NCBI GenBank assembly: GCA_008632985.1 | Contig: QPGO01000073.1 | Span: 124,001 to 188,000 of the forward strand | Direction of reading: 5' to 3' | Length of the DNA stretch: 64,000 bases | DNA from: Psammoneis japonica | Lineage: Eukaryota | Part shown: positions 13,450 through 62,017 of the stretch, one piece after another | How positions within the stretch are numbered: position 1 is the stretch's first letter | Layout: the number at the start of each line of letters is the position of its first letter | Position numbers and translations under genes: made by a program | The notes under the pieces: generated by a model | The model's input: only the letters and a program-made list of their open reading frames with translations | Told to the model about the DNA's origin: nothing | Databases searched by the model: none

Positions 13450-16400
13450 GTCCGTTGATTGCGCAACCCGGGGATGAAGGATTTTCAATGCCGATTTTTG
13501 TCCCTTAATTGTGCATCCCGGGGGGTGGACGATTTTCAACACCTGGTTTGTGTTCATTGATTGTGCATCCCGAGGGATGAATGGTTTTCAATGCCCAGTT
13601 TATGTCCTGTGAGAATCCAATCTGTGAGGGCACTGAATGCTCTCGCTTTTGCATGTTTCGTCTTCCTGCAAACCCTGACAAAAAATGGCTATTTTGCAAA
13701 AGCTGGGGGGTGGAAAAGATGATGTGCAATCGAGAAATAGCTGCAGAAGCTGGGTGGGTTGCAATGAGCCCTTTGGCACCTCCACTGTCACAACTGGCAT
13801 CAAGCTGAAGATGGCAGGTGGAAGATTCAGGAGTGTGACAGCACAAATATGGAGAAAAATGCTCGCCCTCATTTCCTCCTCTGAGCTGCAATCCGCAGGA
13901 GCACATTGATGAAGTGAGGAACTCCACACAAGGTCATGGGTGAAGCTGCAATGCCAAAGCAAAGGGATTGCCAGTCTGGGTGTCTGAGATGGCAGCTGCA
14001 CAAAGGAGACCAGCACTCAAACCCACCAATGCCAACAGCGACCACCAGGAGGGTGTGGTGCAGGGTGCAGGCCATGGTCTGTCATGCCATGCCAATGATC
14101 TCAAAAAGACAACATTGTTGACAGTCAAATGCACAAACATCAGGTGTTGAGCACAGATGTGGAAGAAGAGCACAAGGATCAAAAAGAGAAACTCTTGCTC
14201 CCAAAGGCAAAGCTCAAGAGCACATTGTCAAGAACAAAGGAGGCAAAACTTTGACAAAGATCGCAAAGGCAGCAAGCTCTGACGAGCTGCACTGGAAAAA
14301 CCAGACAAGGAGAAAGAGACATGCAAAAAGCAAGCCAAAAAAATTTGAAGGCAAAAGTGACAAGCTCGGCTTTTTCTTGGGATGGTCTGAGGCCTGGCAG
14401 CTCCTTGGAAAATTTGTCAGAGAACACACACACTGCCTTTCTAACCTTTGAGTGCAAAACGAAGCATTTCTGGAGTTTCTCAACTGCACAATGAAGCATT
14501 TGATCCCAGTGACAGCTTGTGCAAGAATGTCAAATGGCACTCAAGGCATGTTGGAATGAAAAAGAGATGAGCTGTGAGAGGGATTGTGCATTGCAGACCA
14601 GCAGAAGTGAGCCACATTTCAGTGTTCTGCTGTCATGGATGAAGACTTGATGATGGATGTTGAGGAAGATGAAAATTCCAGCCTGAAACATGGTGGCAAC
14701 CTCAAAGGCAGCAGAGATGATTGGTTTCTGGCTGGAAGATTGAGTGTCCTGGTTTGGGTGTGTGCGCTCATTGCAAATGTGACAGATTTGTCTGCTTTTT
14801 GGGGTGCAAGTGCCGAGCCTTGTGTCTGATGTTGTTTGCAGTCAGCACAACTCACAAATTTGGCCATGCCTTGATCTTCATGCTTCCAGACACAACTGAG
14901 CAAGAACAAGGTGCCCACCAAAATGCACCAAAGAAATGATGAACTCCACTTTGCACTTGGCTCACAAGCACAGATTGACAGCAAATTGGCTGGCAGATTG
15001 TGACCCAGTTTGAACAACATGGCACAAGCCAACCCCAAGAGGAAACCCTGCGATGGCGCAGGTGTCCCAACACAGCTCTTGATCAGGCAATGCTTGGGTG
15101 TGCAGTGAAAGCTGACAAAGCACTCATCATTGACAACAAGTGTGCCATGAAAGGCCTCATCTGTGCAAAGTTGGCAAATCCAGAGAGTCATGGTCAAACA
15201 CAAGCAAGTGGCCAAATGACAAGACAAAGTTGCTTGAACTCAGTTTGGCTGTGATGCCATTTTTCATGTTGGGCATCCAATGCAAAGCTTCAAGGTTGGT
15301 TTCATCCAAGAGCTGGGTGGAAGGAACATCTGTGCTGAGATTTGGGGGGCTTGTTGCATGGAGATTTGGCACTCAGTGGATTGGTGTGGATGTGAGACCC
15401 AATGTTGAGCTGCAGGCATGGAGAAGGAAGCTGAGCAATGGTGGGAGATTTGTCAAAGCAGCAAGGAAAAGTGCTCAAGAAAGTTCTTGATGAGGTTTGG
15501 CCAGCAAAGCTCAAAGGTGGGCTGAACTTGCTGCAATGTTTGCAGTGTTGTTTTGGTCTTGGTTTTGTTCTCCAACTACACCAACCTGCTTCTCTGACAG
15601 CTTTGGACAATGGCAAAGCCTCCTGTCAACATGAGTGCAAATGGGTCTTCAATTTCATTTTTTCCAATGCATTCTCCATCATTTGCAGAGCATTTTGTGC
15701 CACAATGTCACAAGAAATTTTTGCTTTTGTTGCCTCTTGCATTCCTGCACTCAAGAGTCTCAGTCACACAAGGTCCAAAATGTGGCCCTGGGGTCCACAA
15801 CAGCAAACCACAACCACACCTTTTGTTCCAGCAATCTGGGGGCAAAACAAGAAAGTTGTGGCCTGGGGGGGGGGGGGGGGGCAGTTTCCCAACACCCTGA
15901 TGATGCTGGTGAGAGTTCACAAGGCAACAGCTTTGTGATGGTGGCACAAACCACACCCTGCTTGACATGCCACACAGCAGTGGTGGTGGTGTGTCAATTG
16001 ATTGAATCTCCCAAGAATGTGCCCATCTCACTCAAATGTTGTTGCCTCTGCTGCTGTCTGCAACAAAACCAAGGTGGTGGCGGCTTCTTTCCCATTGCCG
16101 TGATCTTTCCAACTGTGGCACCTCCAACAAAGTCTTTTGAATCAGCTCATTGCCAATGGCACAAAACTCCTTCACAACAAAGTTTCCATGCATGTCTTTC
16201 CATGCATGTCTTTCCATGCATGTCTTTCCATGCATGTCTTTCCATGCATGTCTTTCCATGCATGTCTTTCCATGCATGTCTTTCCGTGCATGTCTCTGGT
16301 CTCTGGGGCATCTAAGGGGCCACAGTGTCGCAAAGTTGTTGGCAAATCTTCGTTCCTGACGCAGCTTGTTGACATCCAAAAAAGCCACAAAGCCCCTCCT

Positions 16401-17540
16401 TGAAGCAGCATGTCTGGGACTGTTTGGTTGTGGCTGTGGCTGCATTTGAAAATGTCTCATTTTGGTCATCACAAGCTGCTGTCACTGGCCTTTGCTTCTC
16501 CAGACACAAAAACATGTGCTGCTTCAGGTGAGCTGCAAGTTTTGCCTTTTTCAAATCTCTGCTCTCTTTCCCTCCTGCTGCACAACTGCTGCATGCCAAT
16601 GCCATGCACTGCAACTCTGCAGCATGCTCTTGCCATCCAGAGGAGGGCCAAAACACCAACAATGCCAGATTGGCTTGTGGCTTCACACAGTTGTGCTGGG
16701 GAGTGTTGTGGGGGGTTGAATGTTGCTGTCAAGAAGCTTTTCTGCTCATTTTTGTTGAATGTCATTTGAAGCTCTGGTGGCATCTGCTAACCTAAAGAAC
16801 AGCCCTGCCAGCTGTTGAACAAATGCTGCCATTTTGTCATCACATGGTGTGCTCCAGCACCTTTCATGAGAGCCAGTCAATGGCGTGCTGCACCAAAGAT
16901 GCGCCGCCCATGCTGAGGGAGCAGCTGAACAAAGCCTCTGCAAAATCCTCTGTTGTTGAGCTTCACAACTGCCATCAATGCAAAGAGATGGAATTTGTGG
17001 TGCTGCAACCTTCTCATTCTTGCCAGCACACCAAAGCGCGCACTCTTTTCTGCTTCCTTCTCTTTTGTGACACCAGCAGCCCCCCCCCGTCAAAAACCAG
17101 TGTTTGACACACCCCACTTCTTGGTTGAGAGCCAGGGCCACAGCAGCTGCAAAACACCCCACCATCATGTGAAACTTGATTCTGTGGTGAAGAAGCAAAA
17201 TTCCCAGCACAAAATTTCTCATGATGCTGGTTGGCACAAACAAGTGCTGTTGTGGGTGAGGCCGGCAGGCGCCAAAGGGCAAGAACAAGAGAGCTTTTGA
17301 TTTTTTGTCTCTCTCATGCAGCTGCTTCAACAACCCTTTGATTTCCATTGTGAGCAGCAGCACGCACCTTGCAAGAGACATGAAAAGAACATTGTGAATG
17401 CCATCGCTCCAATGATGGCTGCAGGGGAAAAGCATTGACATGATTTCAACCCAAATCCCGGCGGTTGAAAAGAAGAAAGGCCTCTGATGCATGCACTCGT
17501 GCGACTGACGCACCCAAGACATTTCAGAATGGCCGATTTA
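13450..17540. mobile_element. Hypermutated (TpA- and CpG-depleted) repeat domain of undetermined transposon class
   Basis: Only about five TA dinucleotides by eye between 13851 and 17530. Many overlapping Cys/His-rich spurious ORFs. Short imperfect direct repeats at the left edge (~13454-13490 and ~13555-13594). No diagnostic protein motif recognised. Confidence 0.6.
16187..16295. repeat. 14-bp tandem repeat (CATGCATGTCTTTC) x7 plus a partial unit
   Basis: Seven perfect units from 16187 to 16284, then CGTGCATGTCT. Confidence 0.95.
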
Positions 17541-17743
17541 CTATGGGGGACCGTTGAATTTGACGTCATGAAGAGCCTATTTTTGATTGTCATTGTCAAT
17601 TGCAAAAGAGCCGCATTAAGCCTATAAAGGCTCTAAAAAGGCTATTCCCAACATCGTTCCCATCCACCATACGTTGAAAGACTCACCATGACGCTCCCGC
17701 CGTCTTATTGAAATATTGCAACGATATACACTACCAAAACACG

Positions 17744-22397: not shown

Positions 22398-22996
22398 AAT
22401 GATGATGATGCGATGATGATGTGTACAGTAACAAGGATGACAGCAACAGCAGCAACGATACAGTCAACACCAAAACAATGCGCTCAACGTGACTGAAAAA
22501 AAAAATGACGACACCGGCCGGCGCGATTAGTGTGTGATGGACAGACGTTGAAAGCATCTTTTGTGCATGCATGTACCGGCACTTATTGAGCACTGTGTGA
22601 CGACACGTGTAACACACGCACGGGGTGTTTCGTGAGACACCACAATGACAAGGGGTTGCTGCTGCTGCTGCTGCTGTCGCCTTGGATGTTTGGAAGAATC
22701 AAGAGCGTCAAAACAATGGTGGAATCTTTTGTTTGCAACAAAGAATCTGCACATGGTCGTTGAAAAGTGATGCTGTTTGAGAGACAGGGAGTGACGGGGG
22801 GCGCTGGAGGAGCGAGAGAGAGGTGTGCTGCTGCCCCCGTGCATGAGAGAAAAAAGAGACAGAGATCACACAAAAAGCCAGAGAGATGAGTGGTCCAAAC
22901 AAGATGTGTGCAATGTGCAAAAGCACGCCAAGAGCCAAAGAGGAGAGAAAGAGAGAGATCTCTCACCAGGCTTGTGTGCTGCACACACACACACAG

Positions 22997-23060
<64 letters not shown>
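22997..23060. repeat. Compound microsatellite (TC)n(AC)n
   Basis: Directly visible. Confidence 0.95.
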
Positions 23061-23062
<2 letters not shown>

Positions 23063-24255
23063 GAAACCCATGCTGCTCTGCTGCATCATGTCAATGGCAC
23101 ATTTTTTCAGCCAAGGCAGTCCATCTCACCAGCACACTCCAACAAAGCAATCAAGGCTTGTGCACCAACAATGAACAATTCTTTGTGATCTCCACCAAGA
23201 CAAGCAGGCGACCAACTGACACCCACACCAGAAAATTGCTGGGAAGGAGGGGCCAAAGGACACATGCACTCTGGCGCCTCGTGCAGTGCTCCTGCATGTG
23301 ACCTTGGGCCTGCAAAATTCCAAGTGCAAGCTCCACAGTGAAATTGTTGAGCAGCAGTGCGTGCATTTGTGAATGATTGCCAACAGAAAAAAGGCAATTT
23401 TGTCAGAATGCACCCTCTCCTTGACACTTGAAGTGCAGCCTGCATCATTCTTTCCAGTTTGCCTGGGGTGTTTCTTCAGACATTCTAGAGGGGTGTGTGC
23501 CCAGCCTGTTTTTGTTGCCCCCCAAAATGAAAAAAATAGAGAGCCTTTGGCTTTGCAAAACAGGGAGTGCGTGTGAAGCCATTTTGCAGAAGATTGAGCA
23601 CAAAAGTGTGCTGGGTGTGTGACACATGGTGTGATCCAAAACACTCTCATGTCACAGTGCGGCCAGTGGCATGAGCCCCACCTCTGGAGCTCAAGCATGT
23701 CAGCACACAACTTTTCTAGCTGCGTGGTGCCATCTTGGCCACCCCCCCCCCAGCTGCTGCCTGCTGTGCTGGACCAGTTTTTCTGAAACATGCTGCCGTT
23801 GAAACTTTTGTCAAAGACCATTCTGGCCTCTTGGTGTGTTGGTGTGTGGCTGCCTTTGTCAGTCTTCTTGGCAACTTTTTTTCAGATCTGTTGTGTCCTT
23901 TGATGTGTGCCAGCACTCTGAGGTGATGATGGCAGATCAGAGAATGGCACTCGCACCCCCCACCACACATGTGAGAGCAAAAAACACATGCAGAGTCAAG
24001 TGCACTGACCATCTCTTGCAGGAATGAATCTTTTGCCGATGCCCACCAGAGCTGTTCCCTTCTTGTTCTTCCACACATCTCAGGTGGGCAGGAGGATGAT
24101 TCCCCATCAACAGCAATGACAGCACAAAACAATGTGCAGCACAAACAGCAAAGTCACAGCAAGACAAAAAAAAACAGCTGCACAGACATGGTGCACAAAA
24201 ATTGCAAAGCAAAACCAGAGTGGCAAGAAACAAAGAGTGCACACTGCAAATGTCA

Positions 24256-24257
<2 letters not shown>

Positions 24258-24301
<44 letters not shown>
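24258..24301. repeat. (AG)n microsatellite
   Basis: Directly visible. Confidence 0.95.
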
Positions 24302-24303
<2 letters not shown>

Positions 24304-24728
24304 ACCCTGACCCTGACCCCAAAGACAGTGCATCATGCCAGCACTGAGAGTTTGCTGCACCTGATTGTGAGACATGAGGCTTGGTTGTTCCAAAACACTT
24401 GCAGCCACAGGTCATCCCAAATTAGATGGAACATTCCATTTTTTCCAAAAACAAGCAGCATTTCCTCTGGCAGCGAGCCAAAGCCCTTTTAAGGACATTC
24501 CAATGGTGACCAGTTTGATCCATGGGAATTTTTCCACAAGTAGACGAATTTCCAATCTACATGAAATGTCGGCATTTCTGCGCTAGAAATCACAGGAGGT
24601 GCAGGGATCTTGTACTTGCAATTGATTTATGCGTTGAGCTAGAGTGTGATTTGGCGTGGATGCAATGACGTGACAACATCATCTCCTGCAACAATGTCAA
24701 AAATTGAGCAATGGTACACCGTAACGTG

Positions 24729-47606: not shown

Positions 47607-47841
47607 TATGCGTGAGACGACGACTCGACTCCTCCCTTGTGATGATTTTTGAGGTGAAGCGACATGCTCACATTCTTTCAAAATTGTGCTTCACTACTCT
47701 AGCTACTCTCTAGAGGGAGAGTAAGTCAAACTCTAGAGAACAATATCGTATTGAGCAAAAGACTGCAAAGATCAAAGACATTATCGACCTTTAATTCACT
47801 CGGACGGCAATCTCTTTTCATAACCCAATTCAAACGACAAC

Positions 47842-48993: not shown

Positions 48994-51900
48994 GATTAGC
49001 ATCACATTCGTGTAGCATAGGCGCAACGGCAAAATAAAAAGATTCGATCCAATAAGACTACCATGACGGGTCTTTCGAAGCAACAGGCTACCGCTATGGA
49101 TTTTCAACATGCTTGCATGTGTGATAGTTTAAACATTATCTAGCAACTAGCTAGAGGCGCTTCGTTGCATTGATAGACATGCATGATGCTTCAGGACAAG
49201 TCGTCACCTGCTTCCCAAAGATGGTGTTCTCCAGTTGATGCTATGACCTGTAGTGTGACATGGATATCTGTCTTCCTCGCCAGCAATTTCAATTCTCAAA
49301 AAAATTTACAAAAGCGCTGACACAGAGACACAGAGATGACCATGTTTCCGGAGTTCTGCAGTCAGTTGGTGAAGCTGTTGCTTCTTGCTGACAGAAGGGG
49401 GTGTGGTTTGACACCCAGCCAGTGGGCAAAAAAACTGTCTCAGTTGTGCTGACTTGCAAGCAAGACCAAAAATTGAGCTTGAGCTGTTTGCAGCCTGGGC
49501 GCTGTGCACTGGCAAGGAGAGGGCCTCCTGGGCTGGTGTGAGTGCCACTGTGAAACAAAAACCCAGCATTCATGCAGGGCAAAAAATGTGCAGTAGATGG
49601 AGTGAGCAAGAAAGAGGCCATGCCAAGGATTCTCCCATTGTTCCAGCAAGTTCAAGAACACCACTGCAGAGTGGCCAAGGCATCTGCACCATTGCTGAAA
49701 TCAGATGGCACACTTCACCGTGAGGAGATGTTTGAGCCTGTTTGTGTCTGCAAGTGATGGAGGGTGTCACTTGCATCACAAGCCCAGTGGCTGGGTTGTT
49801 GTCACAGCTGCCACTTTGGTCATTGCCGCCGTTGCAGTTGCAGCCATCATGATGGCAGCAGCCTCTTTCATCACACACTCAGCTTGCTGAGCCCCAACCT
49901 CCATCATTGCATTGGCCGCCATGACCACCACCACTGCAGTTTGGTCCCCCCTCCCACACACACACACAACTGAGGTCATCAGGAATGTCACAACATTGAA
50001 GTCATGTGTGACCAGACAAGAGAGTTGCCTGGCTTGGAGACTGACTCTTGCTGCCCTCTGCTCCTTTCTTGCCACACTCTCCGTGCTTGTTGTGGCTGCC
50101 ACCACTGCCGTCATGTTGCCGCCAGTGTTGCCATGCTCTTTGCAGCTTTTTTACAGCACTGATGCCAAAGTCAACAAGGTGCCACCATTGCTGTTGTTTG
50201 AGTGTGGGAAGACAAAATGGGATGAGTGAAGTGGTGCTGAAAGCATGTCAAACTCCTGCTCCAAAAGAAGTGGGCCACATGGGAGAAGCCATCATTGTCA
50301 TTGTCAGACATCTGCTGTCCCAAAGAGCTGGTGTGAGTTTGCTCCACATCTCGCAAATGACAAAAAGTGCATTTGCCATTGAAGCACTGCCCAACCATCA
50401 CCTTGTTGTTCATCAACAGAGATGTGACCCTCATGCACGATGCATGCCAAGGGGTCAAGAGGAGCAGACAAAAGAGGAAAGACACGCAGGTTGAAAGTTG
50501 ACATGTTTGGCAGGGTTGTGGACACAGCCCATTGGGGGCAAGCCAATGGAGTGGTTGAGAAATCTGTGCTGATTCCCAAAGAACATGATGCAAAACAGTG
50601 TCTCACTTGAAGAGCCAGCAGGGGATGGAAGTGCACTGTTGAGGCCAAGCTGGAAGAAAAACAGATGCTGGGGACACCTTTGAAAATGTTGGCATGCACG
50701 TTGGCCATTGTTGTCAGGCATTTTTGATGATGAACACTGGCCAACTCTCCGCTGAGATTTCCAGCTGCAGGCCAGAATGCTGGCATCACACCAAGCTGAG
50801 TGCCAAAGGCACGGCAACTGCCAAAGCAGCCCCATTGGATGTGTGTGCACACTCACCCATCATGCTCAGCCAGCTCCTTTTGGCACACACCACACACAAA
50901 ACCAGAAACAAAAGAAGCTGATGTTCTCTGACTCACGAGGCTCAAGGGCAAATCACAAACACTGAAGTTTTTTGCACACAACTTGTCAACAATCAGATGT
51001 TGTGCTTTCCTTGGCACAGTCAGCTGGCAAGAAAGGAGCTGAGCCCTTGTTTTCACATTCACAAAAGGAGGGTCAGAAAGATGAGGAGGAGGTGGAGGGA
51101 AACAAAAGCAACATTGTCAAAAGGCCAGCCATCAAGATGGAAATGTTTGCATCTCTTTGGTCCCAGCGCAGCTGCGGCATCAGTGTGCATCATTTGGCTG
51201 CCCAGAGCAGCAGGTGTGCATCCACAAAAGCCTTTCTGGAGCAACCGCCAATCACCAAAAAAGGCAGTGGAAAAAAGTCAATGATGGGGAGGTGGGGAGA
51301 AGCTGCTCCAGCTGTGGCTGAGTGTTTGACATGCTTGAAGGAGATCACTTGGGGGTCCTGGGCATGGATCACCATGGCACAAGAGGTGCTCTGATGAGCT
51401 GTGTGAAAAACTTCATTGCCAGCATGCATGTGCTTTGTGCTGCAACAAAAGGCACTTGAGCGTGTCATTGAACTGTGAGAGAGCAATGCCTTGCACTTCA
51501 TGCTGTCACAAGTGCAAGGCAAAGCAAGCACCATGAACATCAAAGTGCTCCAAGCAGGCCAAGTGGACAAGGGTGAGTGTCTTTGTGCTTCAAGATCCAG
51601 CTGCTGGCAGGCCCACTCTGTCTCACAACAGTGAGCAGTGCACAGTGCAAGCATCAAAGTGCACTTTGAGCATGGGGGTCATGAGAGTGAGCATCGCACA
51701 GTTTTTCAAGCCCCTGCTGACAATGGGCCACACCCTGCTCCTTTGAGCCATCACAAGCATGACAAAACACAACCCAAATTCTGTGTTTTGGGTGCTGCTG
51801 GGCTCCCATCCCACAACTCCGCAATGAGCCACTGGCCCATGCCCCATCACAAGCATTGCAGTGAGAAGCATGAGCCCCAAAGCACTTTGAGCCTTTGAGC

Positions 51901-52678
51901 ATGATGAGGGCAAGCATCACTGCGCTTCTTCATGTCAAGAAGCACAGGCGACCAACCACAAGGACAACAAGCATGAGACTGAACATGTGGCTGGTGCTGG
52001 CTGGTCGAGCAAAACACAACATTGTGCACTCTCCACTGGCTGCACCAGACCAATTGTGGACTGCCAAGACCACCATCAAGTTGACGGAAGAGGCCCGCAA
52101 TGAAGATGACACTAACGAGAACTGCGCTGACTTTGCAAAATCTTGGTTTGCCAGCGATGAACATCCAACCAAAGTGCAAGACCCTCACGGATGTGAACCC
52201 TTGCAGTCATTTGTTTGACAACAATCTGCGTTTTGCACCAGCACATGAGCTCAAACAAAAATCATGAACAATGTTTGTTCACAGCATGAAGACAGCTGGA
52301 CACAGCCATTCAGTGAAGTGCTCAATTTTCTGATTTTGAAAAACCGAAATTTCTGAAATTCCCCGTCACAGATCAGCTTGCGCACAGGCTTGGGCTGCTC
52401 GGGGATCGGCAAGTTGCTTCACGGGACAAGAACAAACGTTGTTGAGCAAGAAAATGTCGAAATGTCGAGTCAACGACGTGGATCACGCACTTCAACATTG
52501 TCCAAAGCTGAAGCCATTCAGAGGCATTGTGTGACATGGTGTGGCACTGGATTGTCACAAGAGACGCTTTCCGCCACCCAGCCTTCCCGGCTGCATCTCG
52601 TAAAAGGGGAAAGTGCAAAAGCTTTCTTTCCGGTGAAGGCGGTTGCAATGCACTCTTCGAGATCAACAGCAAGATGGG

Positions 52679-55600
52679 CAGTGGCACAGCCAGGGGGGTG
52701 CTAGAGGGTGCTCAGCACCCCCAGTCTTCGAGAAAACTCGCCAGTCCACGAGCTGCACGAGCTCTAAAAAACCTCTTACATTGCATCGCGCTCTCTTGCC
52801 ACATTGCCAAAAGACCATTTCTGCATGGAAACCACGTGAAATCATGTGACGAACATCACTTCTCAGTCGCACTTGCGCAGAAGTCGCGTTCATTCGTGCT
52901 GCAGGTGGTGTGACCCACCTCCTCTTTCCAAATTTTGTTTTTTCCAGGCATGTCGGCGGTCTCTTTGTTTGCTCTGGGTTGCCGCATGGATGTCAACTGA
53001 CCCTCTAGACTTCAAGTCGTGAAAATGGCAGGTCGTCAAACAGTGTGGGATGCTGCACATGATGACAACGCTGACGTGGAAGGTCATCCTTTAAGCAATT
53101 GTCCCTTGTGCACAGTGCAAATTTTATGCCGTGCATGAGGCGGAGGACATGAGAAGGTTGTGCCGCACACAAAGGCAATTTTTTGCTCACTCAACGGGGC
53201 ACTTTTTTGAGTCATCACACATTGCCCTTTGTCATTTTAATCAAGTTAGTCGAAGACAGCTTTAAACCGCCGTCATGCGGCAGTGCGCACAGAGAAGATG
53301 GATCTTGTGGCACAAATGTCGCCAGTCTAACGCAAGCAACTGGGACAGTGAACATGGAAAATGTGATGGCATTCCAAGCAGAAAGAGTTGCTCTTGTCAG
53401 CTGTTGCTTGCTTCCTGTCTCTCTGTTGTTGTTTCTTCTTTTGCAGTGGAAGAGAGCACCAAGCTTGTCTCGCCCAGCACTTCGAGCTTGTCTCACCCAC
53501 TTCCTTCCTGCCACCATGCCACACACAATGATCAAAGCATTTTGCTTTTCAACTCTGCCACAAAGTGTTCTGAGTTGGCAATGCAAGAGGCCGGCTGAGC
53601 TCTGGCAGCTCCTGGGAGCTGGCCAGCGCCAAGCACCACTGATGCTGCTCTTGGCTGGTGCCTCACAAGCAGTGGCTGTGCACAATGACGTGCACTCTTG
53701 AGCCACCACCTGGTGCCAAGACTGCACCAAGTTGGCTTGCTTCTCTCTGTGCAGCTTCTTGACTTTGCCCATGCCATCCTCATCAAAGCAATCTTTTGTT
53801 TTCTCACCCTGCTTTTGCCGCTGCTTGTCTTGTGCTGGCAGCTGGCACATGCTGCCTGGAGATCATTTCTGGCCACCTCAGATGCTGCATGCCTGTGAAC
53901 TTCTGCTCTTTTCATCTTTTCTTTTTGTTGTTGTTGCTCTGGCTGCTTGCTGCTCCAACACACAGCAGAGCTGCTTTTTGCTGCTGACACACTGCTGCTC
54001 TTGCCCATGACCTTGTTGGCGCCACAGCAAAGCACTGTGCTGGGAGCTCTGCACCAAACACCAAAGCTGCAAAGATGATTGCCCAGCCCTGCAAAGAGGT
54101 CATGGAGCACATGCTTGTGCTCTCATTTGACAGAAGCAGTGCACAGCAGCAGAGAGACATCTTCAGCAAGCTTCGGTGCTTTCGCACATGCTTGGAGATT
54201 CGCTGACAAGCGCGCCGCTGGAGTGGTTTTTTGTGAGGCACAGCTCTGAATGACGTCTGGGTCACACCCCAAAGTGGTGTTAAAAACACTTTTCAGGGTG
54301 CTGCTGCTTGGTCATGGACAACACACAGAGATTCTTGGCTGGCCTGCTGGGGCGGCAATGAGCTTTTGCCAGGTTGTGCTGCAAAGAAGCATCTCACAAC
54401 TCTGCTTGCTTTCAGCTCCCAAACAGTCTCACAATTTCCCCCTTTTTTGGCATTTTGTTCACCCCTTCCACCCAGTTCTTCAAGGCACAGCACATGCCAC
54501 TGTCCTCTGTGCAGGCTCTTGTCCCCTCTCTGGTGGCTTCTCTCTTCTTGCTTCTTCACGTTGCTCTGCCTCCTCTTGTGGCCTTCTCCACTGGTGCTCT
54601 GGTGTGGCTGGGCACTTTGTTTCTACACAAGCTCCTTGTCTGCATGTTGCATTTTGCTTTGCATGTTGTTCCTTGTCCTTGAGTGCAGCTGCCTTTGATG
54701 ATGGTTGCTTGTGCAATTGTCAGTTCTCCTGAATTTAAAATCCGGGTTGCTTTTGCGACATGAGCCTCGCTTTGCTCGAGTCGAGTCAATCAAAACCTGT
54801 TGCCCACACCAGGCAAAAAAATGCCAAAAACGGCAGGTTGTCAAACAGTGTGGGATGCCGCACATGACGACAATGCTGACGTGGAAGGTCATCCTTTGAG
54901 CAATTGTCCCTCATGTGCGGTGCAAATTTTGTGCCGCGCGTGAGGCGGAGGACACAAGAAGGTTGTGCCGCACACAAAGGCAATTTTTTACTTGCTTGGC
55001 GGGGCACTTTTTTGAGTCATCACACATTGCCCTTTGTCATTTTAATCAAGTTAGTCGAAGACAGCTTTAAACCGCCGTCATGCGGCAGTGCGCACAGAGA
55101 AGACGGATCTTGTGGCACAAATGTCGCCAGTCTAACGCAAGCAACTGGGACAGTGAACATGGAAAATGTGATGGCATTCCAAGCAGAAAGAGTTGCTCTT
55201 GTCAGCTGTTGCTTGCTTCCTGTCTCTCTGTTGTTGTTTCTTCTTTTGCGGTGGAAGAGAGCACCAAGCTTGTCTCGCCCAGCACTCCAAGCTTGTCTCA
55301 CCCACTTCCTTCCTGCCGCCATGCCACACACAATGATCAAAGCATTTTGCTTTTCAACTCTGCCACAAAGTGTTCTGAGTTGGCAATGCAAGAGGCCGGC
55401 TGAGCTCTGGCAGCTCCTGGGAGCTGGCCAGCACCAAGCACTGCTGATGCTGCTCTTGGCTGGTGCCTCACAAGCAGCAGCTGTGCACAATGACGTGCAC
55501 TCTTGAGCCACCACCTGGTGCCAAGACTGCGCCAAGTTGGCTTGCTTCTCTCTGTGCAGCTTCTTGACTTTGCCCATGCCATCCTCATCAAAGCAAGCCT

Positions 55601-56790
55601 TTGTTTTCTCACCCTGCTTTTGCCGCTGCTTGTCTTGCACTGGCAGCTGGCACACGCTGCCTGGAGATCATTTCTGGCCACCTCAGATGCTGCATGCCTG
55701 TGAACTTCTGCTCTTTTCATCTTTTCTTTTTGTTGTTGTTGATCTGGCTGCTTGCTGCTCCAACACACAGCAGAGCTGCTTTTTGCTGCTGACACTGCTG
55801 CTCTTGCCCATGACCTTGTTGGCGCCACAGCGAAGCACTGTGCTGGGAGCTCTGCACCAAACACCAAAGCTGCAGAGATGATTGCCCAGCTCTGCAAAGA
55901 GGTCATGGAGCACATGCTTGTGCTCTCATTTGACAGAAGCAGTGCACAGCAGCAGAGAGACATCTTCAGCAAGCTCCGGTGCTTTCGCACATGCTTGGAG
56001 ATTCGCTGACAAGCACGCCGCTGGAGTGGTTTTTTGTGAGGCACAGCTCTCAATGACACCTGGGTCACACCCCAAAGTGGTGTTAAAAACACTTTTCAGG
56101 GTGCTGCTGCTTGGTCATGGACAACACACAGAGATTCTTGGCTGGCCTGCTGGGGCGGCAATGGGCTTTTGCTGGGTTGTGCTGCAAAGAAGCATCTCAC
56201 AACTCTGCTTGCTTTCAGCTCCCAAACAGCCTCACAATTTCCCCCTTTTTTGGCATTTTGTTCACCCCTTCCACCCAGTTCTTCAAGGCACAGCACATGC
56301 CACTGTCCTCTGTGCAGGCTCTTGTCCCCTCTGGCGGCTTCTCTCTCTTCTTGCTTCTTCGTGTTGCTCTGCCTCCTCTTGTGGCCTCATCCACTGGTGC
56401 TCTGGTGTGGCTGGACACTTTGTTTCTACACAAGCTCCTTGTCTGCATGTTGCATTTTGCTTTGCATGTTGTTCCTTGTCCTTGAGTGCAGCTGCCTTTG
56501 ATGGTGGTTGCTTGTGCAATTGTCAGTTCTCCTGAATTTAACATCCGGGTTACTTTTGCGACATGAGCCTCGCTTCGCTCGAGTCGAGTTAATCAAAACC
56601 TGTTGCCCACACCAGGTAAAAAAATGCCGTGAAAACGCGCTAAAAATGAGTGAAAATGTTGTCTGTGTGTAATTTTTTCCGTTCCGCGGGCGCCTCATTC
56701 CCCGGCGAGGCTGTCAACCCCGTGTGGGCGTGTGCTCGCTTTGCTCGCAGTTGTGGCACTCCCAGTTGATTTGGTCTGGCTACGCCACTG
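52679..56790. mobile_element. hAT-type DNA transposon (4.1 kb), probably non-autonomous, hypermutated
   Basis: Right TIR CTGGCTACGCCACTG (56776-56790), left TIR CAGTGGCACAGCCAG (52679-52693). 8-bp TSD AAGATGGG (52671-52678) / AAGACGGG (56791-56798). No transposase motif recognised. Confidence 0.82.
53026..56628. repeat. Internal tandem duplication of a ~1.8-kb unit (53026-54830 and 54831-56628)
   Basis: Both units start GGCAGGT.GTCAAACAGTGTGGGATGC and end CCCACACCAGG.AAAAAAATGCC. The ORF track shows near-identical ORF pairs offset by ~1805 bp. Confidence 0.93.
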
Positions 56791-57024
56791 AAGACGGGCA
56801 TGGACGCAGTGGCTTTGGCCATTGAAAAAAGAACAAGCACGAAAGTGAAGTGCTGTTTCAATCAAGCACAAAGTTTCTTGTCAAGTCCAAGTCTGTTGAA
56901 CACCGAGTGGAGGCCACCTTTGGGAAAGATCACGTGCGTTTTGATGCAGCAACTTGCAAATTGGTGAGGGAAGCGAAGAAGAGAGGCAAGCATGGGAAGG
57001 GAAGATGAAAGGCAAGCAAGGCAG

Positions 57025-60000
57025 GGAGGAAAGACAAATGAGTGCACTCAAGCACACTTGAAGTGCGCCCTTTTTTGTCTGCCAGATGACCGCGTAGAAT
57101 TCCATGTGCAACTTCAGTCGCAAGTGTGCTTTTCAGTCGTAAGTGCACTTTTTAGTGTGCTTTGTGTTCCATTCGACAAGTCCAACACAGCCATCATTTT
57201 CAACCCAGTTTTTTCTCCCAGAGTTCTGTCACGCAGTTTTCCATCATCTGCAAAAGTGCAGGTGGTCAATTGCTTTGGTCATTTGGCACTGTTTCAATCG
57301 CAACCAGATCATCGAAAAAGTGAAGGTTCTGGAGCTTGGCACATTTTCTGCACATTCCTGCGCAAGTCATGGCTTGGTTGCGAATGGCAAACTGAGTGTG
57401 CCTTGATTTGCAATTGTCAAGACTGGTCGATGCATCAATTTCAACCCTTTTTTTTCTCCCAAAATTCCATCATGTGTCACACGATGTGATGCACAAGTTT
57501 TCATTGTCAATTGCTTTGGCCTTTTGGAACCATCTTGATTGCAACCAGATCACCCAAAAAGCAAAGTTGGAGGTTCTTGGTGCATGCCCCGCACATTTCT
57601 GCGCAGGTGGCGATTGATCAATTGAGTGCACTCTGTGCATCACTGTGCTGAGTTTCTGCGCAGAAAATGCTGTTGACGTCCAACACTGAGTCCCGCGAAA
57701 ACTCAGTGGAAATTCCTGTGCATCGCACACAACCGCACACAACTCAACCAAAATTGTCCACAGTGCAAAGTGCAATCGACAAGGTGACCATAGCCGCCAT
57801 TGTCTGCCTTGATTTTTTCCCTGCACATCAATGTTTTTGTTTGTTGTTTTGTGCATTCGTCGCATTTGTGTCATCTTTCGTTGTTTGTCTGATTCATTCG
57901 CTGTTGTTGCTGCAGTGCTGTTTCCACTCTGTGTGCATGCAACACAAATCGCGCAAACATGTGGTGTTTCCACGCCGCACAAAATTTCTGTTGAATTCCA
58001 CATGTTCCGCATCTTGCATTTGATTTGCCTTTCCCGCCTTGCAAAGAAGCACTGCAGCACTGCTTGGTGAGTGAAAAACCCAATTTCTTCACAGTTGCGC
58101 CATGTGGGCTCCTGTTTGTCTGACCAACCTGTCAAATGTGGCACCCCAATTTTGTTTTTTACAGAGGACCGTCAGACACATCCACACACTCTCGCTCTTC
58201 CAGGGACAGGAGAGCACCTGTTGCCACCACAATGGATGGGGACAACTCACAAGATGATGGGAGAAGCTTGTCCCAGCATGAAGAATCTGCTCTGGACAGG
58301 AATTTTTTCCGCCAGTTTCTTTTGTCACAAGCAAGAATGGAGCAGATTCAGTCTCAGCAGAGGGTGACTGAAATCTTCCGGGTGATGGAGGCTGAGGTCG
58401 GCTCCAGGCACACCCAGCCCAGGGTTCACTGTGCAGAGGACAGACACCCCTCAGCTGCTGCTTCTGAGGCTGTCAAGCCCCCTGTCATGAGCTCAAAAAA
58501 GGCTGTGGTGGAAGAGCATGAGTTTCCAAACTGCGAGATGCAGTGGCGGGCCAAAGGCTTGGGTGAATTCTCCCCCACAACAGGCTGGGCAATGGGCACT
58601 TGCTCAACTAAAAAGTCCACAGATGGCTTGAGAAAAGTTTGCAAACACTGCATGGGTGTCTTTGTTTGCTCCCTTTGTAGAGAGTTTCTTGAAAGGCCCC
58701 GGCAGCCTCAGACAGGAAGGAAGAAGTTTGGGTCGCCACTCCCTCCCAAGCTGGTGTGCCCCAATCATGAGCAAGAGTCAAAATTGGAGCACAAAGAGTG
58801 CACCTGCCTGCTGACCTGTCAAGAAGTCAGTGCCAACTCTTGGCTCATGAGCCACAAAGGGAGGCACCAACACCCAAGACCTCCACCATCGAAGCTCCCA
58901 ATGGCAGCACAAGGAAAGCTTGAGGAGCTTGTCAGAGCTGCTCCTGAGTTGACTCCAGCACAGCTGAGACTTGGGGCTGCAACCAGGCCTCGAGTGTCAC
59001 AGATTCACCCAGCTCTTCACAACAAAGATCGTGCAAAAAACATGAGGAAGAAGATCTTAAAGGAAACAGGGATGAGCTCCACCATTGCCAGCCTTGTGAA
59101 TTTCCGAAAGGAAGTGAACCAGAGCTTCATTGTTTCAGAGCAGCTCACCACAGATGATGCTCACATTGTCATGCAAGACCAAGACATGATTGACATGCTG
59201 AGAGAGCCAGCATCACCCATGCAAACTGACTCTGTGGAGGGATTTGTTGTTGATGCAGACTTCCAGGGGCAGATCAATGTCACCTTCTCTTCACAGTTTG
59301 ATGCAATGTTGCAGCAGTGGGTCCCAGTCTGCATTTCCATCTTGTTTGGCAAAACTTCTGCACACTACAAAGCCCACTGGTGCAGGGTGCTTCAGTGCTG
59401 CCAGGCCAACACCTGGGATGATTTCTTGAACAACTTCCAAGGAAACACAGCGACTTTTCTGACGCCATTCGAAATGGCTTCTTTGCAGCCATGCAGGAGC
59501 TTGCACTTGAGCGTCATGACAGGGAAGCCACAGATGAGGAGATTGCCCAGTTTTACAACTTTTGTGATGTTCACTTTGAGAGGTCCCGCATGAGGGTGGC
59601 CAGAAACTCTGCTGTTGTCAATCCAGACAGGGAGGATGACTTCAACCACCATGTCAACAGCTTGAGGGGTTTTGTCCAAGGAAACTTTGCTCAGTTTGAA
59701 AAGTCCTGCAAGCTGCTCATCAGATCTTACCCAAATGCCGAGTCATGGCTGAAGTGGTTTCTCAACCCAAGGAGGGCAAGGATTTTCTTTCCTGCATGCA
59801 GGCAGCTGGATGAGCTGCAGCAGCAGAGGCATGAAAAGCTCTGCACAGACACAAATGCACAGGAAAATGTTGGAAAACAGTTTCAGTGCAGTGCACCAAA
59901 GACCAAGTTGACCATTGGAGAAGCAGTTCTGCATGCTTTCAAGTTCTGCAATGCAAATGTCTTTGACAGAAAGGCAGCAGCCAGGGGAATTGCACGTCAT

Positions 60001-62017
60001 TACGGAGCTTGCAAGAACATCCAGTCAGGCCACAAGAAGCCCAAGAGCAAAAGAAAGCAAGGGAAAAAAACAAACGATGGAAGAGCACCAGACACCACAA
60101 AGCAGCTGACAAGGCCAAAAAAGAAGCCTGCACCCAAAAAGAGGCCAGGGGAGTTGGCAGCAAAGAAGCAGGCAGGAGGCACCATGAAGCAAACAAGGAT
60201 CAAGTTCAAGACCCAATCATCAAAAAAAACTGCACCCAGGCATGCTGTGACCTCATTCCAAGGCATCCCATGGAATGTGCCCAGCAAAGGAGACTGTCCT
60301 GGCATCAACAACACTTGCAGGCTGGACAGCTTGTTGACTTTGCTGTTCTCACTTCACAAGCAGCAGCTGATGAAGAAGCCAATGGCGGAGCTGGCTGATC
60401 CAGACAACCTCCTGTCAAAGACGTTCAGCTTGATGGAGAAGGGTGAGTTTGATGATGCCAGGCACCTTTGGGTGAGTGACAATTCTGTTCTCAAGGACAT
60501 GAATTGCCAAATTAGAAAGAGCCGGTTTGCCAAGTTCAACATGTTTGGGTCACTCTTTGAGGTTTTTGGCCCACCAGTCAGTCCAGGAGCTCCCTTCCCA
60601 ATGAGCCAGTCATTTTGAGCCTGCTTTGAATTCTTTGAAAAGTGTGTTGCAGGTGACTCTTGGTGTCCTTCATGCTTCTCTGATGAGGATGAAGATGGGC
60701 GTCCAAGGAAAAAGATCTTCAACACATTCCCCATTTCAGAATTTGACAGTGCCAGCCACAGCCTCCAAACTTGCCTTGAGAGTGACTTGCAGAAGTGTGG
60801 GAACTTTCAAGGTGGTGTTGGTGAGGGTGAGGATGCAGTGATGGTGGCAAGTGACACCCCAGAGGAGAGGCAATGCTGCGGATTCCTGAACACCACTGAA
60901 AAAGTCATCACGAAGTTCCCACACATGATGGTTTTTACAAGCACCCCAAAACCCGGTCTTTCACTTGGAGATTTGGAGACAGAGTTTTCTCTTTGTGGGA
61001 AACAGTTTGGCTTGAGAGGGACCTTGAGTGGAGATGGTGGAGTTCACTTCACTTCATGCATCAGAGGAGAGGCAAGCTGGATCTTTTATGATGGAATTGG
61101 GGATGATTTCCCTGTCTGGGAGAGGTGGATGTTTCGCGAACAAGACCAGGTTTTTCAGGGAGAGCACAGCTCCCAGATGGTCATGGCCACAGTGTGCGAG
61201 GTCTCAGACTTGGAGGTTGGAGAGGAGAGCAGCAAGCCAGGGGAGCAAGAGCAAAGCAAGCCAGGAGAAGAGGAAGAGCATTTGGAGATTGGAGAGGAAA
61301 GCAACAAGCCAGGGGTGCAAGAGCAAAGCAAGCCAGGAGAGGAAAAGCAAGGCAAGCAACAGAAGAGAAAGAGAGTGGCCTTGGGCAATGGTGCAATCAA
61401 GTGGAAACAAGTGGCCAGAGCAGTCAAGCTTGAGTTCAGGGAGGAGGGCAAGACAGGGGGAAGATTGCCAACATGCAGGGGCTGCGGCCAGCTCCTCTCT
61501 CAGAATGAAAACAGGCTTCTCTGCACCTTTTATGAGAAAAAAGGACACAAACTCAAGACAGAATGGCAGCTGCACTGCAGGCTGACATGCATTGATGGCA
61601 AATTGGATGAGCAATCTCTTCACAAATTGTTTGAAAAAGGGGAGCACCAAGCAGTTCGGGGCCTTCAAGGGCAGCTTGAGCAGGCTGCCAAAAATGTGCA
61701 GCATGTGATTTGAGGCTGAGGTTTTCAAGTTTTCTGCAAACAACAACTCTTTTGTTTGTCTAATTTAGAACTGCTTTGTCTGCACATTGTTGGCTTTTAT
61801 CATGTTCATTGGAGCATTGTCCACTGCTTGGTGCAATGCGTTTTTCATTGTTTGCCGGCACACCCACGTGGAATGTACGGCACAGTGCACAACACACTTG
61901 CAAAATTTGTCCATGCTGCAGCTGGTGTGGTCCCACGTAGAAATGTACGCAAGGGTCATAGTGCACTCGAGTGCACTTGAAGTACACTTGACAAGGTACA
62001 CTTTTTTGACTTTTCCC
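57025..62017 (+). mobile_element. Full-length Mutator-like element (MULE), ~5.0 kb
   Basis: 9-bp TSD GCAAGGCAG at 57016-57024 and 62018-62026. Imperfect TIRs: GGAGGAAAGACAAATGAGTGCAC.. versus the reverse complement of the right end, GGGAAAAGTCAAAAAAGTGTAC... A ~240-bp subterminal tandem repeat at ~57195-57630. Encodes a transposase. Confidence 0.82.
58232..61713 (+). pseudogene. MULE transposase pseudogene: GCM-type Zn DNA-binding domain + DDE domain + USP-like cysteine protease + PARP-type zinc finger
   Basis: GCM-like TGWAM...CMGVFVC...RP...CP...HKGRHQHPRPP. Catalytic QTDS, DFSDAIRNGF, FCDVHF (CxxH) and TNAQEN. Cys box NNTCRLDSLL, His box GVHFTSCIR...WIFYDG. TCRGC...R...WQLHC..C. One frameshift at ~59450 and one in-frame TGA at 60616-60618. 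Confidence 0.78.

Follow-up and report, generated by a model that had tools for sequence, protein, structure and literature searches.

Results

The window, by which we mean the whole 64-kb stretch of DNA that was analyzed, contains two functional sulfotransferase-like genes, a pseudogene patch, transposase-like and repeat sequences, and four domains almost free of the dinucleotide TA. Segmentation placed the TA-free domains at 13691-17577 (domain 1; 3.9 kb), 22575-24540 (domain 2; 2 kb), 33434-47427 (domain 3; 14 kb) and 49252-61765 (domain 4; 12.5 kb), which together make up half of the window. They contain 9, 7, 54 and 50 TAs, respectively, with observed/expected (O/E) ratios of 0.035, 0.057, 0.066 and 0.064. 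Summed over 32.4 kb, we counted 120 TAs compared with approximately 1,980 expected from base composition, meaning that about 94% of the expected TA is gone. When the window was examined kilobase by kilobase, TA O/E was 0.58-0.77 in genic parts and 0.00-0.15 at 14-17, 23, 34-47 and 50-61 kb, and the low values form unbroken stretches of 3, 13 and 11 windows of 1 kb. An earlier reading, made from the sequence alone, had described large domains nearly lacking TA beside genes with normal TA, and the per-kilobase ratios and the segmentation both agree with it. Its estimate by eye of about five TAs in 13851-17530 was accurate, as there are exactly five (14442, 15577, 16313, 16788 and 16793). The right edge of domain 1 is sharp, with no TA from 17077 to 17538 and dense TA from 17578. 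TG and CA are in excess in the four domains (O/E 1.63-1.93) and mostly reach 1.5-2.0 in the low-TA 1-kb windows, with 39-44 kb at approximately 1.3 for TG and 2.0 for CA. CG is also depleted (O/E 0.16, 0.21, 0.49 and 0.30 in domains 1-4, compared with approximately 0.9-1.1 in genes), and TA depletion exceeds CG depletion in all four domains, in line with the earlier proposal that CpG decay co-occurs but is less complete. We conclude that TA depletion in these domains is real and extreme.

An artifact of assembly, polishing or sequencing could produce such a pattern; domain 3 does include an assembly gap (an N run at 33832-34294), and the sole runs found come from one sample. Raw reads of run X1, which represent a single sample and possibly the very one used for the assembly, were put together into independent contigs at a word depth of approximately 60. 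A 3,880-nt contig covers 12007-15881 and differs from the assembly at 5 letters, and a 1,869-nt contig covers 16256-18123 and differs at 7. The TA-free sequence is thus recovered from raw reads, which excludes a polishing artifact, although the run does not amount to an independent platform. The pattern also respects gene boundaries and codon structure, and the same signature is carried by L001, a public contig that belongs to a different record. An artifact is already contradicted at the level of polishing, and we give this explanation a negligible probability overall.

The sequence-only reading had considered all of the large domains to be transposons, and a mobile identity was found for two elements. 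In domain 3, a Tc1/mariner-like transposase remnant (46377-46985, + strand) matches Pfam DDE_3 (PF13358; E=1.1e-8; 35.6 bits, cut-off 28.6) over profile positions 76-135 of 146. Its frame reads ...DNASTH...LLFPPTCSPKLNPMEKMW and includes PTCSP at 46518-46532, with Cys at the position where the Tc1 family motif has Tyr (YSP), so the replacement claimed for this motif is present. In domain 4, a nearly intact transposase-like gene (58286-61686, + strand) belongs to a family of approximately 1,090-aa proteins with a GCM/WRKY-type zinc finger. We identified 534 homologs, of which 150 were used in tblastn and gave 58286-61686 as the sole place of match. In a profile comparison, the family matched the DNA-binding domain of GCM1 (1odh_A, E=3.3e-9). 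The transposon label does not extend as firmly to the rest. Penelope-like retroelements have a reverse transcriptase (RT) domain and, in many cases, a GIY-YIG nuclease. The peptides FCLAPK (40736-40753 and 44299-44316, - strand) and LPCHP (39764-39778 and 43326-43340, - strand), which presumably resemble Penelope RT motifs, are present as quoted in both copies of a repeat in domain 3. The nearest Atlas clusters in a feature search bear PF26215 and are commonest in Rotifera (score 0.97), and 10 ORFs gave no Pfam RT or GIY-YIG match at E<=5; we treat the Penelope-like assignment as a lead only. Pfam and homolog searches gave no mobile-element identity for domains 1 and 2; in domain 1, none of 21 ORFs matched a Pfam entry, and homologs were likewise not found. 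Domain 2 holds a high-copy segment (word depth 989 at 23275-23725 compared with approximately 50 beside it) and carries (CA)n, (CT)n and (GA)n runs.

The depletion had been described as repeat-targeted, and a duplicated gene pair bears on this claim. The functional sulfotransferase-like genes, at 32037-33182 (+ strand; a 381-aa ORF with a weak Pfam Sulfotransfer_2 match) and 47842-48993 (+ strand), lie within a 96.8% identical duplication (31837-33831 and 47640-49643), and both are spared. Over approximately 1.47 kb compared, the pair shows 32 differences (97-98% identity); 44 TAs are common to both copies, and only 3 differences are between TA and TG or CA. TA O/E is 0.35 in copy 1 and 0.80 in its 3' flank (33183-33433). 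In the aligned duplication, both copies turn TA-free at one shared position, and 49252-51244 in domain 4 is a duplicate of the left edge of domain 3. Retention of 44 TAs by a duplicated gene pair, together with the identical starting point, argues that duplication per se is not the trigger. We conclude from these alignments that the hypermutation is not triggered by sequence duplication, and the term repeat-targeted is not supported. The individual differences quoted between paralogs are all present (33370/49181, 33442/49251, 33457/49266 and 33651/49461), as is the contrast in alignment A1 between AATAAGACTACCATG in the gene and AACAAGACTGCCATG in the pseudogene. The quoted change of RYDD (33066-33077 and 48877-48888) to RCDE (30901-30912) was likewise located.

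Sulfotransferase-related copies outside the gene pair have lost TA. A pseudogene patch outside the large domains (30401-31200, + strand) is TA-poor, with 10 TAs compared with 45 expected, and CpG-normal, with 39 CGs compared with 52 expected. Inside domain 3, a TA-erased fragment derived from the 3' end of the host gene (38363-38991, + strand) is 83.5% identical to 30631-31276, and 8 TA-to-TG/CA changes are common to it and the patch. Where the functional gene has TA (12 sites), one pseudogene copy retains 1 and the other (38363-38991) retains 0, with TG or CA in place of those lost. When the outside copy (30631-31276) was compared with the inside copy (38363-38991), TA corresponded to TG or CA 12 times, and the reverse was found once.

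We then considered whether copies lost TA independently. The Penelope-like repeat, which we refer to as pair C, occurs at 39544-40854 and, 3,564 bp downstream, at 43108-44417 (both - strand; 84.9% identical). Of 192 substitutions between the copies, 126 are interchanges within {TA, CG, TG, CA}, including 42 double differences in which one copy has TG and the other CA. Such CA|TG differences account for 42/52 adjacent double transitions in pair C, 9/13 in pair B and 0/2 in the spared gene part. With CpG allowed for, the ancestor of pair C would have had approximately 74 TAs in 1,311 bp, which is a normal density. A runs test on the 42 sites gave z=+1.09, with the strands uncoordinated. A tandem duplication in domain 4 (53022-56628, + strand; 2 x 1.8 kb, 96.2% identical) has 45 of 70 substitutions within {TA, CG, TG, CA}. 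Most of these pair comparisons are unpolarized and take TA as ancestral. Our reconstruction indicates that pair C began with normal TA and that each copy resolved its sites independently, as the earlier reading had claimed for paralogous copies.

Relatives of the transposase-like gene in domain 4 also bear on polarity. Five distant ones from metagenome contigs have normal TA (O/E 0.46-0.69), and their proteins contain 2.6% Tyr compared with 0.6% in the gene itself. With the losses at the TA sites of the functional gene and the 12-to-1 difference between the outside and inside copies, these comparisons support TA to TG/CA as the direction of change.

The same gene raises an alternative, that the elements arrived or evolved TA-free through selection against TA, for example to evade a nuclease that reads TA or to evade the hypermutation. 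It is TA-free and intact, keeping 204/236 conserved columns, with zero in-frame stops in 1,131 codons and with T|A at 4 codon boundaries compared with C|A at 148. Four of six conserved Tyr residues are retained as TAC or TAT, and the Tyr-rich columns are mostly Phe (10/25), which TA-to-TG/CA changes cannot yield. L001, the nearest relative of this gene in public data, is TA-free as well (O/E 0.03). However, L001 has Tyr-to-His replacements in conserved motifs, just as the Tc1-like remnant has Tyr-to-Cys; pair C began TA-normal and each copy lost TA independently; the host-gene fragment inside domain 3 lost its TAs; and TA is normal in the distant relatives. Given this evidence, selection against TA is better seen as a consequence of mutation pressure for one family than as an alternative, and as the origin of the pattern we consider it very unlikely. 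A gene that is TA-free yet intact suggests that mobile elements can adapt to TA erasure, and the element shows that part of the TA poverty arose under selection on its lineage, beyond decay in place.

Sequence context differed between TAs that survive and those of normal DNA. The 120 surviving TAs comprise 3 RTAY, 53 mixed and 64 YTAR sites, compared with 366, 680 and 171 among 1,217 TAs in normal DNA, and the product excess is +12.3 per kb for RCAR/YTGY compared with +3.0 per kb for RTGR/YCAY. The changed A therefore appears to be preferentially followed by a pyrimidine (5'-TAY-3'), on the assumption of host-like starting tetranucleotide content and flank-symmetric CpG decay. Counted from the site list, 13/17 single differences at mixed-flank sites obey this rule. 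A strong rule would leave fewer TG|CA doubles at mixed flanks than the 27/50 counted, so we rate the preference as no more than moderate. C-to-T change at CpA/TpG may have created some of the surviving TAs, which would then be new instead of resistant. Both strands are affected equally and without clustering. Besides the retroelement-like copies, the affected sequences include DNA transposon remnants and a fragment of a host gene, which argues for action at the level of DNA.

These results bear on ADAR-like A-to-I editing at UA of element transcripts, fixed through reverse transcription. ADAR prefers a 3' G, whereas a 3' pyrimidine is favored here. DNA transposon remnants and the host pseudogene fragment are affected equally, strands are hit equally without clusters, and tandem copies diverged in place. 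That one affected family is retroelement-like would fit RNA editing, as would the preference of ADAR for a 5' U (10.64898/2026.01.13.699255, Discussion). ADAR-type hyperediting is nevertheless contradicted by the sequences affected, the lack of clusters and the 3' context, and we regard it as extremely improbable.

A second chemistry would have thymine as the base attacked, with a TET/JBP-type dioxygenase modifying T in TpA of silenced DNA to 5-hydroxymethyluracil (5hmU) or a derivative that is copied or repaired as C, which would turn TpA into CpA, read as TpG on the opposite strand. Strand-symmetric products cannot separate A-to-G from T-to-C, the 5'-TAY preference could just as well be one of the paired T for 5'-RTA, and co-occurring CpG decay fits a shared 5-methylpyrimidine chemistry. 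On the other hand, 5hmU opposite A is generally copied faithfully, and we detected no T-to-C signal at TpC (TC O/E 1.05 over the entire window). A 2024 PNAS paper states that 5hmU in a dinoflagellate takes the place of thymine, with a preference for TA and TC, and connects 5hmU with the silencing of transposons in its title and significance statement (PMC11572971). We consider attack on thymine unlikely.

Discussion

Taken together, our comparisons suggest that a process acting on DNA probably converts TpA to TpG/CpA on silent mobile DNA. The A:T pair of TpA would become G:C, giving TpG when one strand is changed and CpA when the other is. Conversion would occur in place, after insertion of the element, with the strands of a TA site struck independently and neighboring sites uncoordinated, and would run near to saturation over a background of slower, 5-methylcytosine (5mC)-type CpG decay. 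Because the process keeps to domains with sharp edges and is not tied to sequence duplication, we infer that it is targeted by a chromatin, silencing or foreign-DNA mark. For the chemistry, we tentatively favor, as the most likely option, an enzyme that deaminates adenine in DNA; the resulting hypoxanthine would be read as G at replication, and the enzyme could be TadA/ADAT2-like or another deaminase. Coding TA losses would be mostly silent, with TAA and TAG stops removed and none made, so elements would be crippled mainly through Tyr-to-Cys/His changes and could escape by becoming TA-free.

Known systems resemble this process in part. Decay of 5mC at CpG shares a palindromic dinucleotide target, TG/CA products, a strand-symmetric uncoordinated outcome and the same domains. 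The CpG deficit with TpG/CpA excess in the domains appears to fit such decay. Decay of this kind accounts for the CpG component alone and has no way of turning A:T into G:C at TpA, and TA loss can also occur without CpG loss (30401-31200). Fungal RIP, a dinucleotide-specific transition hypermutation of mobile DNA that likewise leaves skewed blocks beside normal genes, changes C:G to T:A at CpA to make TpA, creates stop codons and is triggered by duplication. Here the skew is opposite (TA O/E 0.035-0.066; TG and CA 1.6-1.9), TAA and TAG are removed, and the duplicated gene segments keep their TAs, and we rejected RIP. APOBEC3, acting on single-stranded cDNA, and ADAR, acting on double-stranded RNA, also drive context-specific transition hypermutation of selfish nucleic acids (retroelements and viruses of animals), as would the putative enzyme here. 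These enzymes leave strand-coordinated clusters, in contrast to the unclustered changes in chromosomal DNA of all element classes that we observed. TadA and ADAT2 act on A34 preceded by U33, and bacterial TadA reads U-A-C, a context that matches the T-A-pyrimidine preference. Evolved TadA, as used in adenine base editors, deaminates A in DNA, and we know of no established natural chromosomal role of this kind for TadA/ADAT2.

The process had been thought undescribed, but a bioRxiv preprint on Bigelowiella natans already reports hypermutation that takes TpA to TpG/CpA (Mettrop et al., April 2026; 10.64898/2026.01.13.699255). According to its main text, integrated viral DNA was hypermutated at TpA during mutation accumulation: 231/302 new mutations fell in two viral insertions, and 230/231 of these were A-to-G or T-to-C, all on TpA. 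The rate was approximately 1000-fold above the rest of the genome and was elevated in some lines only, low-TpA genes were enriched for DDE and RT domains, and an ADAT/TadA-like deaminase was also proposed (10.64898/2026.01.13.699255). As far as that text describes them, the two cases share an identical dinucleotide target and products (comparative here, de novo there), confinement to particular foreign or silent regions, and long-term TpA depletion with CpA/TpG enrichment in runs of 1-kb windows. They differ in host, which is a chlorarachniophyte there and an ochrophyte stramenopile here, and in extent, with Rho 0.45 for the NCLDV region there and TA O/E 0.035-0.066 over half the window here. 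Viral insertions are the targets there; here the process has struck transposon-like elements and a pseudogene fragment from the host, and no viral genes were identified in the window. Possible foreign targets in domains 3 and 4 are the Tc1-like remnant, the GCM-finger gene and the Penelope-like lead, and the host-gene fragment is also affected. A term search of the preprint's main text returned no CpG co-depletion, 3'-pyrimidine preference, lack of strand clustering or TA-free intact element, all of which are seen here.

Judged by its signature, the window is a further, far more saturated case of the B. natans type in another lineage. It is possible, though we hold it to be doubtful at present, that a TpA-directed DNA adenine-editing defense is ancient and widely distributed in the SAR supergroup (at least in chlorarachniophytes and ochrophytes), targeted by silencing and not by homology, and in an arms race with elements that purge TA. 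If so, escape in this arms race would consist of synonymous TA loss and replacement of Tyr by Phe, with essential Tyr alone kept, and TA-free coding sequence would be a genomic fossil record of the defense across protist genomes and metagenomes.

Four domains of the window are nearly free of TA

Across the whole window, the observed/expected ratio (O/E) was 0.34 for TA, 0.65 for CG, 1.45 for TG and 1.50 for CA. By kilobase, the genic parts had a TA O/E of 0.58-0.77, compared with 0.00-0.15 at 14-17, 23, 34-47 and 50-61 kb. Segmentation delimited four TA-poor domains: domain 1 at 13691-17577 (9 TA, TA O/E 0.035, CG O/E 0.16), domain 2 at 22575-24540 (7 TA, TA O/E 0.057, CG O/E 0.21), domain 3 at 33434-47427, which has a 463-N gap inside (54 TA, O/E 0.066, CG O/E 0.49), and domain 4 at 49252-61765 (50 TA, TA O/E 0.064, CG O/E 0.30). 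Combined, the domains cover 32.4 kb and hold 120 TA, against about 1,980 expected from base composition, and their TG and CA O/E were 1.63-1.93. The edges were sharp, at about 100 bp or less, the exception being the left edge of domain 1.

Contigs assembled independently from run X1, a raw-read run of one sample, matched the TA-free sequence of 12007-15881 at a word depth of about 60 with 5 letters differing, and an X1 contig over 16256-18123 again carried TA-free sequence, with 7 letters differing. Because these contigs carry the TA-free sequence too, a polishing artefact is excluded and the view that the depletion is artefactual is contradicted; run X1 may be the assembly's own source. Run X2 matched only genic parts of 12-25.5 kb and X3 matched nothing, and uncovered parts are not equivalent to silence. 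The domain counts, O/E values and read contigs thus confirm the TA depletion observed in an earlier sequence-only reading, and the paralogue differences and peptides quoted there were all found in place.

Contents of the domains: a Tc1/mariner remnant, a Penelope-like lead and simple repeats

The domains have 143 stop-to-stop ORFs that reach 100 aa or more, and among these Pfam returned only DDE_3 and a weak GCM match. The DDE_3 match belongs to a Tc1/mariner remnant at 46377-46985 (E=1.1e-8), whose frame includes ...LLFPPTCSPKLNPMEKMW, with Cys at the motif position that is Tyr in the family; a homologue search with the Tc1 ORF (longer proteins) found nothing. The repeat pair 39544-40854 and 43108-44417 on the minus strand (pair C) bears the peptides previously read as Penelope and has an Atlas resemblance to rotifer clusters with PF26215 (score 0.97). 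Pfam found no RT domain among ten ORFs of these copies at E<=5, and we treat the Penelope-like identity as a lead only.

In domain 1, homologue searches with 16749-17537(-) and, in Atlas, with 14622-15239(-) were empty, and the edges of domains 1 and 2 showed no terminal inverted repeats. The domain 2 segment 23275-23725 had an approximately 18-fold word depth in run X1 (989 vs about 50 in adjacent bins), and is therefore a high-copy repeat in the genome. No mobile-element domains were found in the normal-TA parts of the window. Within the TA-free domains, at 16169-16322, 22982-23063 and 24258-24301, we also observed a 14-bp minisatellite, TTTCCATGCATGTC, in about 8 copies, and simple runs of (CA)n, (CT)n and (GA)n. 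We speculate that CATGCATG and (CA)n are the products expected of (TA)n under a TA-erasing process.

TA is lost in place, in each copy separately, and toward TG or CA

Independent resolution of an ancestral TA in two copies should leave half of the sites as TG in one copy and CA in the other, an adjacent double transition. In the repeat comparisons CA|TG was by far the top class of adjacent double transitions, with 42 of 52 in pair C, 9 of 13 in another repeat pair (pair B) and 10 of 20 between the window's transposase-like element and a public relative, contig L001; in the spared gene segment of a duplication the count was 0 of 2. Interchanges within {TA, CG, TG, CA} made up 126 of the 192 substitutions in pair C. 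With CpG allowed for (about 8.6 doubles expected), the ancestor of pair C had about 74 TA in 1,311 bp, which is a normal density, and the TAs common to both copies today number 2. That ancestral composition alone accounts for the TA-poor domains is contradicted by this normal ancestor and by the independent loss in each copy. From these alignments, TA loss takes place in situ and independently per copy.

We examined direction in a four-way alignment of two functional sulfotransferase-like genes with two pseudogene copies. The functional genes have 12 TAs in common; the 30.5-31.3 kb pseudogene retains 1 of these and the domain 3 copy at 38363-38991 retains 0. At the lost TAs, the two pseudogene copies carried TG/TG five times and CA/CA three times. 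Comparing the pseudogene copies, TA outside versus TG or CA inside occurred 12 times and the reverse once, while the CG equivalent gave 13 vs 3. The pseudogene patch 30401-31200, outside the large domains, shares 8 TA losses with the domain 3 copy, which has lost further TAs: one sequence family, with a different fate by location. Distant relatives of the transposase-like gene (L002-L006, metagenome contigs at 28-37% identity) had a TA O/E of 0.46-0.69; these outgroups do not already lack TA, in keeping with the direction proposed earlier. Tyr makes up 2.6% of their proteins and 0.6% of the window copy; for the host genes of the window the figure is 3.0%. Taken together, these comparisons indicate that the direction of mutation is TA to TG/CA.

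Duplication is not the trigger, and TA loss is separable from CpG loss

The segments 31837-33831 and 47640-49643 are 96.8% identical. Their gene part keeps 44 shared TAs, and both turn TA-free at the identical aligned point, 33434 and 49252; the non-coding 3' flanks adjoining the domain have a TA O/E of 0.80. With this gene pair spared, duplication as such is not the trigger, and the earlier proposal of repeat targeting is not supported. The full segmental duplication (31837-35383 and 47640-51244, about 15.8 kb apart) comprises gene and TA-free domain edge. Its mobile part was already TA-free before duplicating, and from then on it has changed at roughly twice the rate of the gene part (72 substitutions over about 1.5 kb vs 32 over 1.47 kb). 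The functional sulfotransferase-like genes at 32037-33182(+) and 47842-48993(+) had a TA O/E of 0.35 and 0.37 and a TG/CA O/E of 1.3-1.45, compared with a TA O/E of 0.48-0.67 in other host genes and 0.80 in their own 3' flanks. This intermediate level may reflect mild past exposure of a multi-copy family, or codon usage.

TA O/E was about 0.05 in every domain, versus a CG O/E of 0.16-0.49. In the patch 30401-31200, TA was poor (10 vs 45 expected) and CpG was normal (39 vs 52 expected). TA loss is both faster than CpG loss and separable from it.

A transposase-like gene appears adapted to TA erasure

Three ORFs at 58124-61710 together represent a single gene, a nearly complete member of a protein family about 1,090 aa long. 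It has 534 homologues, and 150 of 150 tested map only to 58286-61686. The family had no match to a transposase Pfam domain; a profile built from it hit 1odh_A, the DNA-binding domain of GCM1 (E=3.3e-9). GCM/WRKY fingers head Mutator-like transposases, and we call the gene transposase-like.

The gene retains 204 of the 236 columns conserved among homologues, and has one frameshift and 0 in-frame stops in 1,131 codons. TA is gone from places where losing it is silent: the codons TTA, CTA, GTA and ATA occur 1, 0, 0 and 0 times, and T|A vs C|A at codon boundaries is 4 vs 148, compared with 206 vs 437 in host genes. Of six conserved Tyr columns, 4 keep a TAC/TAT codon and the other 2 have Phe; at the 25 columns with at least 25% Tyr among homologues, we counted 10 Phe, 5 Tyr and 2 Cys. 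A change of Tyr to Phe requires a transversion, outside the reach of TA to TG/CA, and retention of essential Tyr (4/6) is far above the 5-8% general TA survival. Both observations place the loss of TA at a time when selection was still maintaining function in the lineage. Among public sequences the nearest relative, L001 (JAAUYE010099229.1, 2,034 bp; 54% protein and 69% nucleotide identity), bears the same signature (O/E: TA 0.03, CG 0.13, TG 1.71, CA 1.52), and in it a nearly invariant Tyr has become His, the direct product of TA to CA. The element at 58286-61686 appears to be adapted to TA erasure through TA-free coding.

Each strand is attacked independently, with an apparent TAY preference

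Along pair C, TG|CA and CA|TG sites formed 25 runs where 21.6 were expected (runs test, z=+1.09), showing no strand clustering by this test, and TG and CA counts along the domains were about balanced. All element classes and one host-gene fragment are affected, so an RNA intermediate is not needed. RNA editing as the source of the changes is contradicted by that breadth and by the lack of strand clusters. We rejected a kilobase-scale TG/CA strand asymmetry at 39-45 kb, where the O/E gaps reflect base skew and counts are about balanced except at 41501-42000. That stretch has TG 76 vs CA 17 and an AT skew of -0.55, whereas the domains are balanced elsewhere.

The 120 surviving TAs comprise 3 RTAY, 53 mixed (RTAR/YTAY) and 64 YTAR, whereas 1,217 TAs in normal DNA comprise 366, 680 and 171. 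Log survival was -2.55 for the mixed class, close to the average of -2.89 for the two symmetric classes, as predicted by independent attack on each strand. Product excess was +12.3 per kb for RCAR/YTGY vs +3.0 per kb for RTGR/YCAY, assuming host-like ancestral composition and CpG decay symmetric for flanks, and 13 of 17 mixed-flank single differences obey the same rule (one-sided binomial about 0.025). Because of these two results, the changing A apparently has, by preference, a 3' pyrimidine (5'-TAY); equivalently, the changing T has a 5' purine. Doubles at mixed flanks are frequent (27/50), which argues that the preference is only moderate.

A second lineage with TpA hypermutation, and candidate mechanisms

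The process had been put forward as undescribed, but TpA hypermutation has already been reported in Bigelowiella natans. In that preprint, 231 of 302 new single-nucleotide mutations in mutation-accumulation lines fell within integrated giant-virus and virophage regions, and 230 of the 231 were A-to-G or T-to-C, all 230 on TpA, at about 6e-7 per site per generation, roughly 1000x background (Mettrop et al., bioRxiv, April 2026, 10.64898/2026.01.13.699255). The same source describes 324 low-TpA genes, enriched in DDE and RT domains, and 124 clusters of TpA-poor, CpA+TpG-rich 1-kb windows, and proposes an ADAT2-like deaminase; CpG, flanking bases and trinucleotides go unmentioned in its main text (10.64898/2026.01.13.699255). 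Subscription journals aside, the literature yielded no description beyond this preprint, and a preprint of July 2026 that deals with mutation spectra in phytoplankton contained no TpA or hypermutation term. What stands of the sequence-only reading is that the process is real, runs from TA to TG/CA and acts on copies independently; its novelty and the repeat targeting do not. New here are the host lineage, near-saturation across half of the 64-kb window, transposon targets, CpG co-depletion, the per-strand TAY preference, duplication independence and a TA-free intact element.

The MRD1-like gene at 26138-28962 has a best protein-collection match of at most 58-59% identity (BLASTP; 62% over 410 tree columns). 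In its single-gene tree it groups with a diatom and unnamed sequences (support 100/100); this clade lies within stramenopiles as the sister of brown algae, and a chlorarachniophyte sequence falls outside it. This position makes the host lineage an ochrophyte stramenopile, not Bigelowiella. The window genes are long uninterrupted ORFs; the MRD1-like gene is split over two overlapping ORFs (26138-27715 and 27619-28962), and a short intron, a frameshift or an assembly error could account for the split.

Collectively, the data show a process that acts on DNA, changes A:T to G:C specifically at TpA and stays within domains. GC-biased gene conversion was rejected, as a restriction to TpA is not expected of it. 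Because edges are sharp, duplication is not needed and a pseudogene family is mutated further inside a domain, targeting would act through a silencing or foreign-DNA mark. The leading chemistry, which we rate at slightly under an even chance, would be adenine deamination in DNA. The T-A-pyrimidine context recalls the TadA target, U33-A34-C35. This context, the product and the candidate enzyme of the B. natans preprint are consistent with deamination. The main rival, a TET/JBP-type enzyme that modifies T at TpA, seems to us unlikely, although 5hmU in a dinoflagellate is reported to take the place of T with a preference for TA and TC and to silence transposons there (PMC11572971).

Implications

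Natural examples of directed A:T-to-G:C mutation in chromosomal DNA are almost unknown; the one report found is a 2026 preprint on a single alga. The TA-erasing process described here belongs with this very recently described kind, and several features sharpen the mechanistic question. Per-strand independence, the lack of processive clusters, the apparent 5'-TAY context, sharp edges and the lack of duplication dependence limit what kind of enzyme and targeting signal to look for. A natural TA-specific DNA adenine editor would interest the base-editing field, and in the annotation of protist genomes TA-free blocks would be an easy marker of silenced mobile DNA.

As a defence, TA erasure would be much gentler than fungal repeat-induced point mutation (RIP). 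RIP creates stops, whereas TA erasure removes TAA and TAG, and this accounts for long ORFs being present in all six frames. It would be silent at most codon positions and escapable through TA-free coding; with stops removed and changes mostly synonymous, elements can therefore survive by turning TA-free. If another major lineage has the process too, and in far more saturated form, it is not a one-species curiosity.
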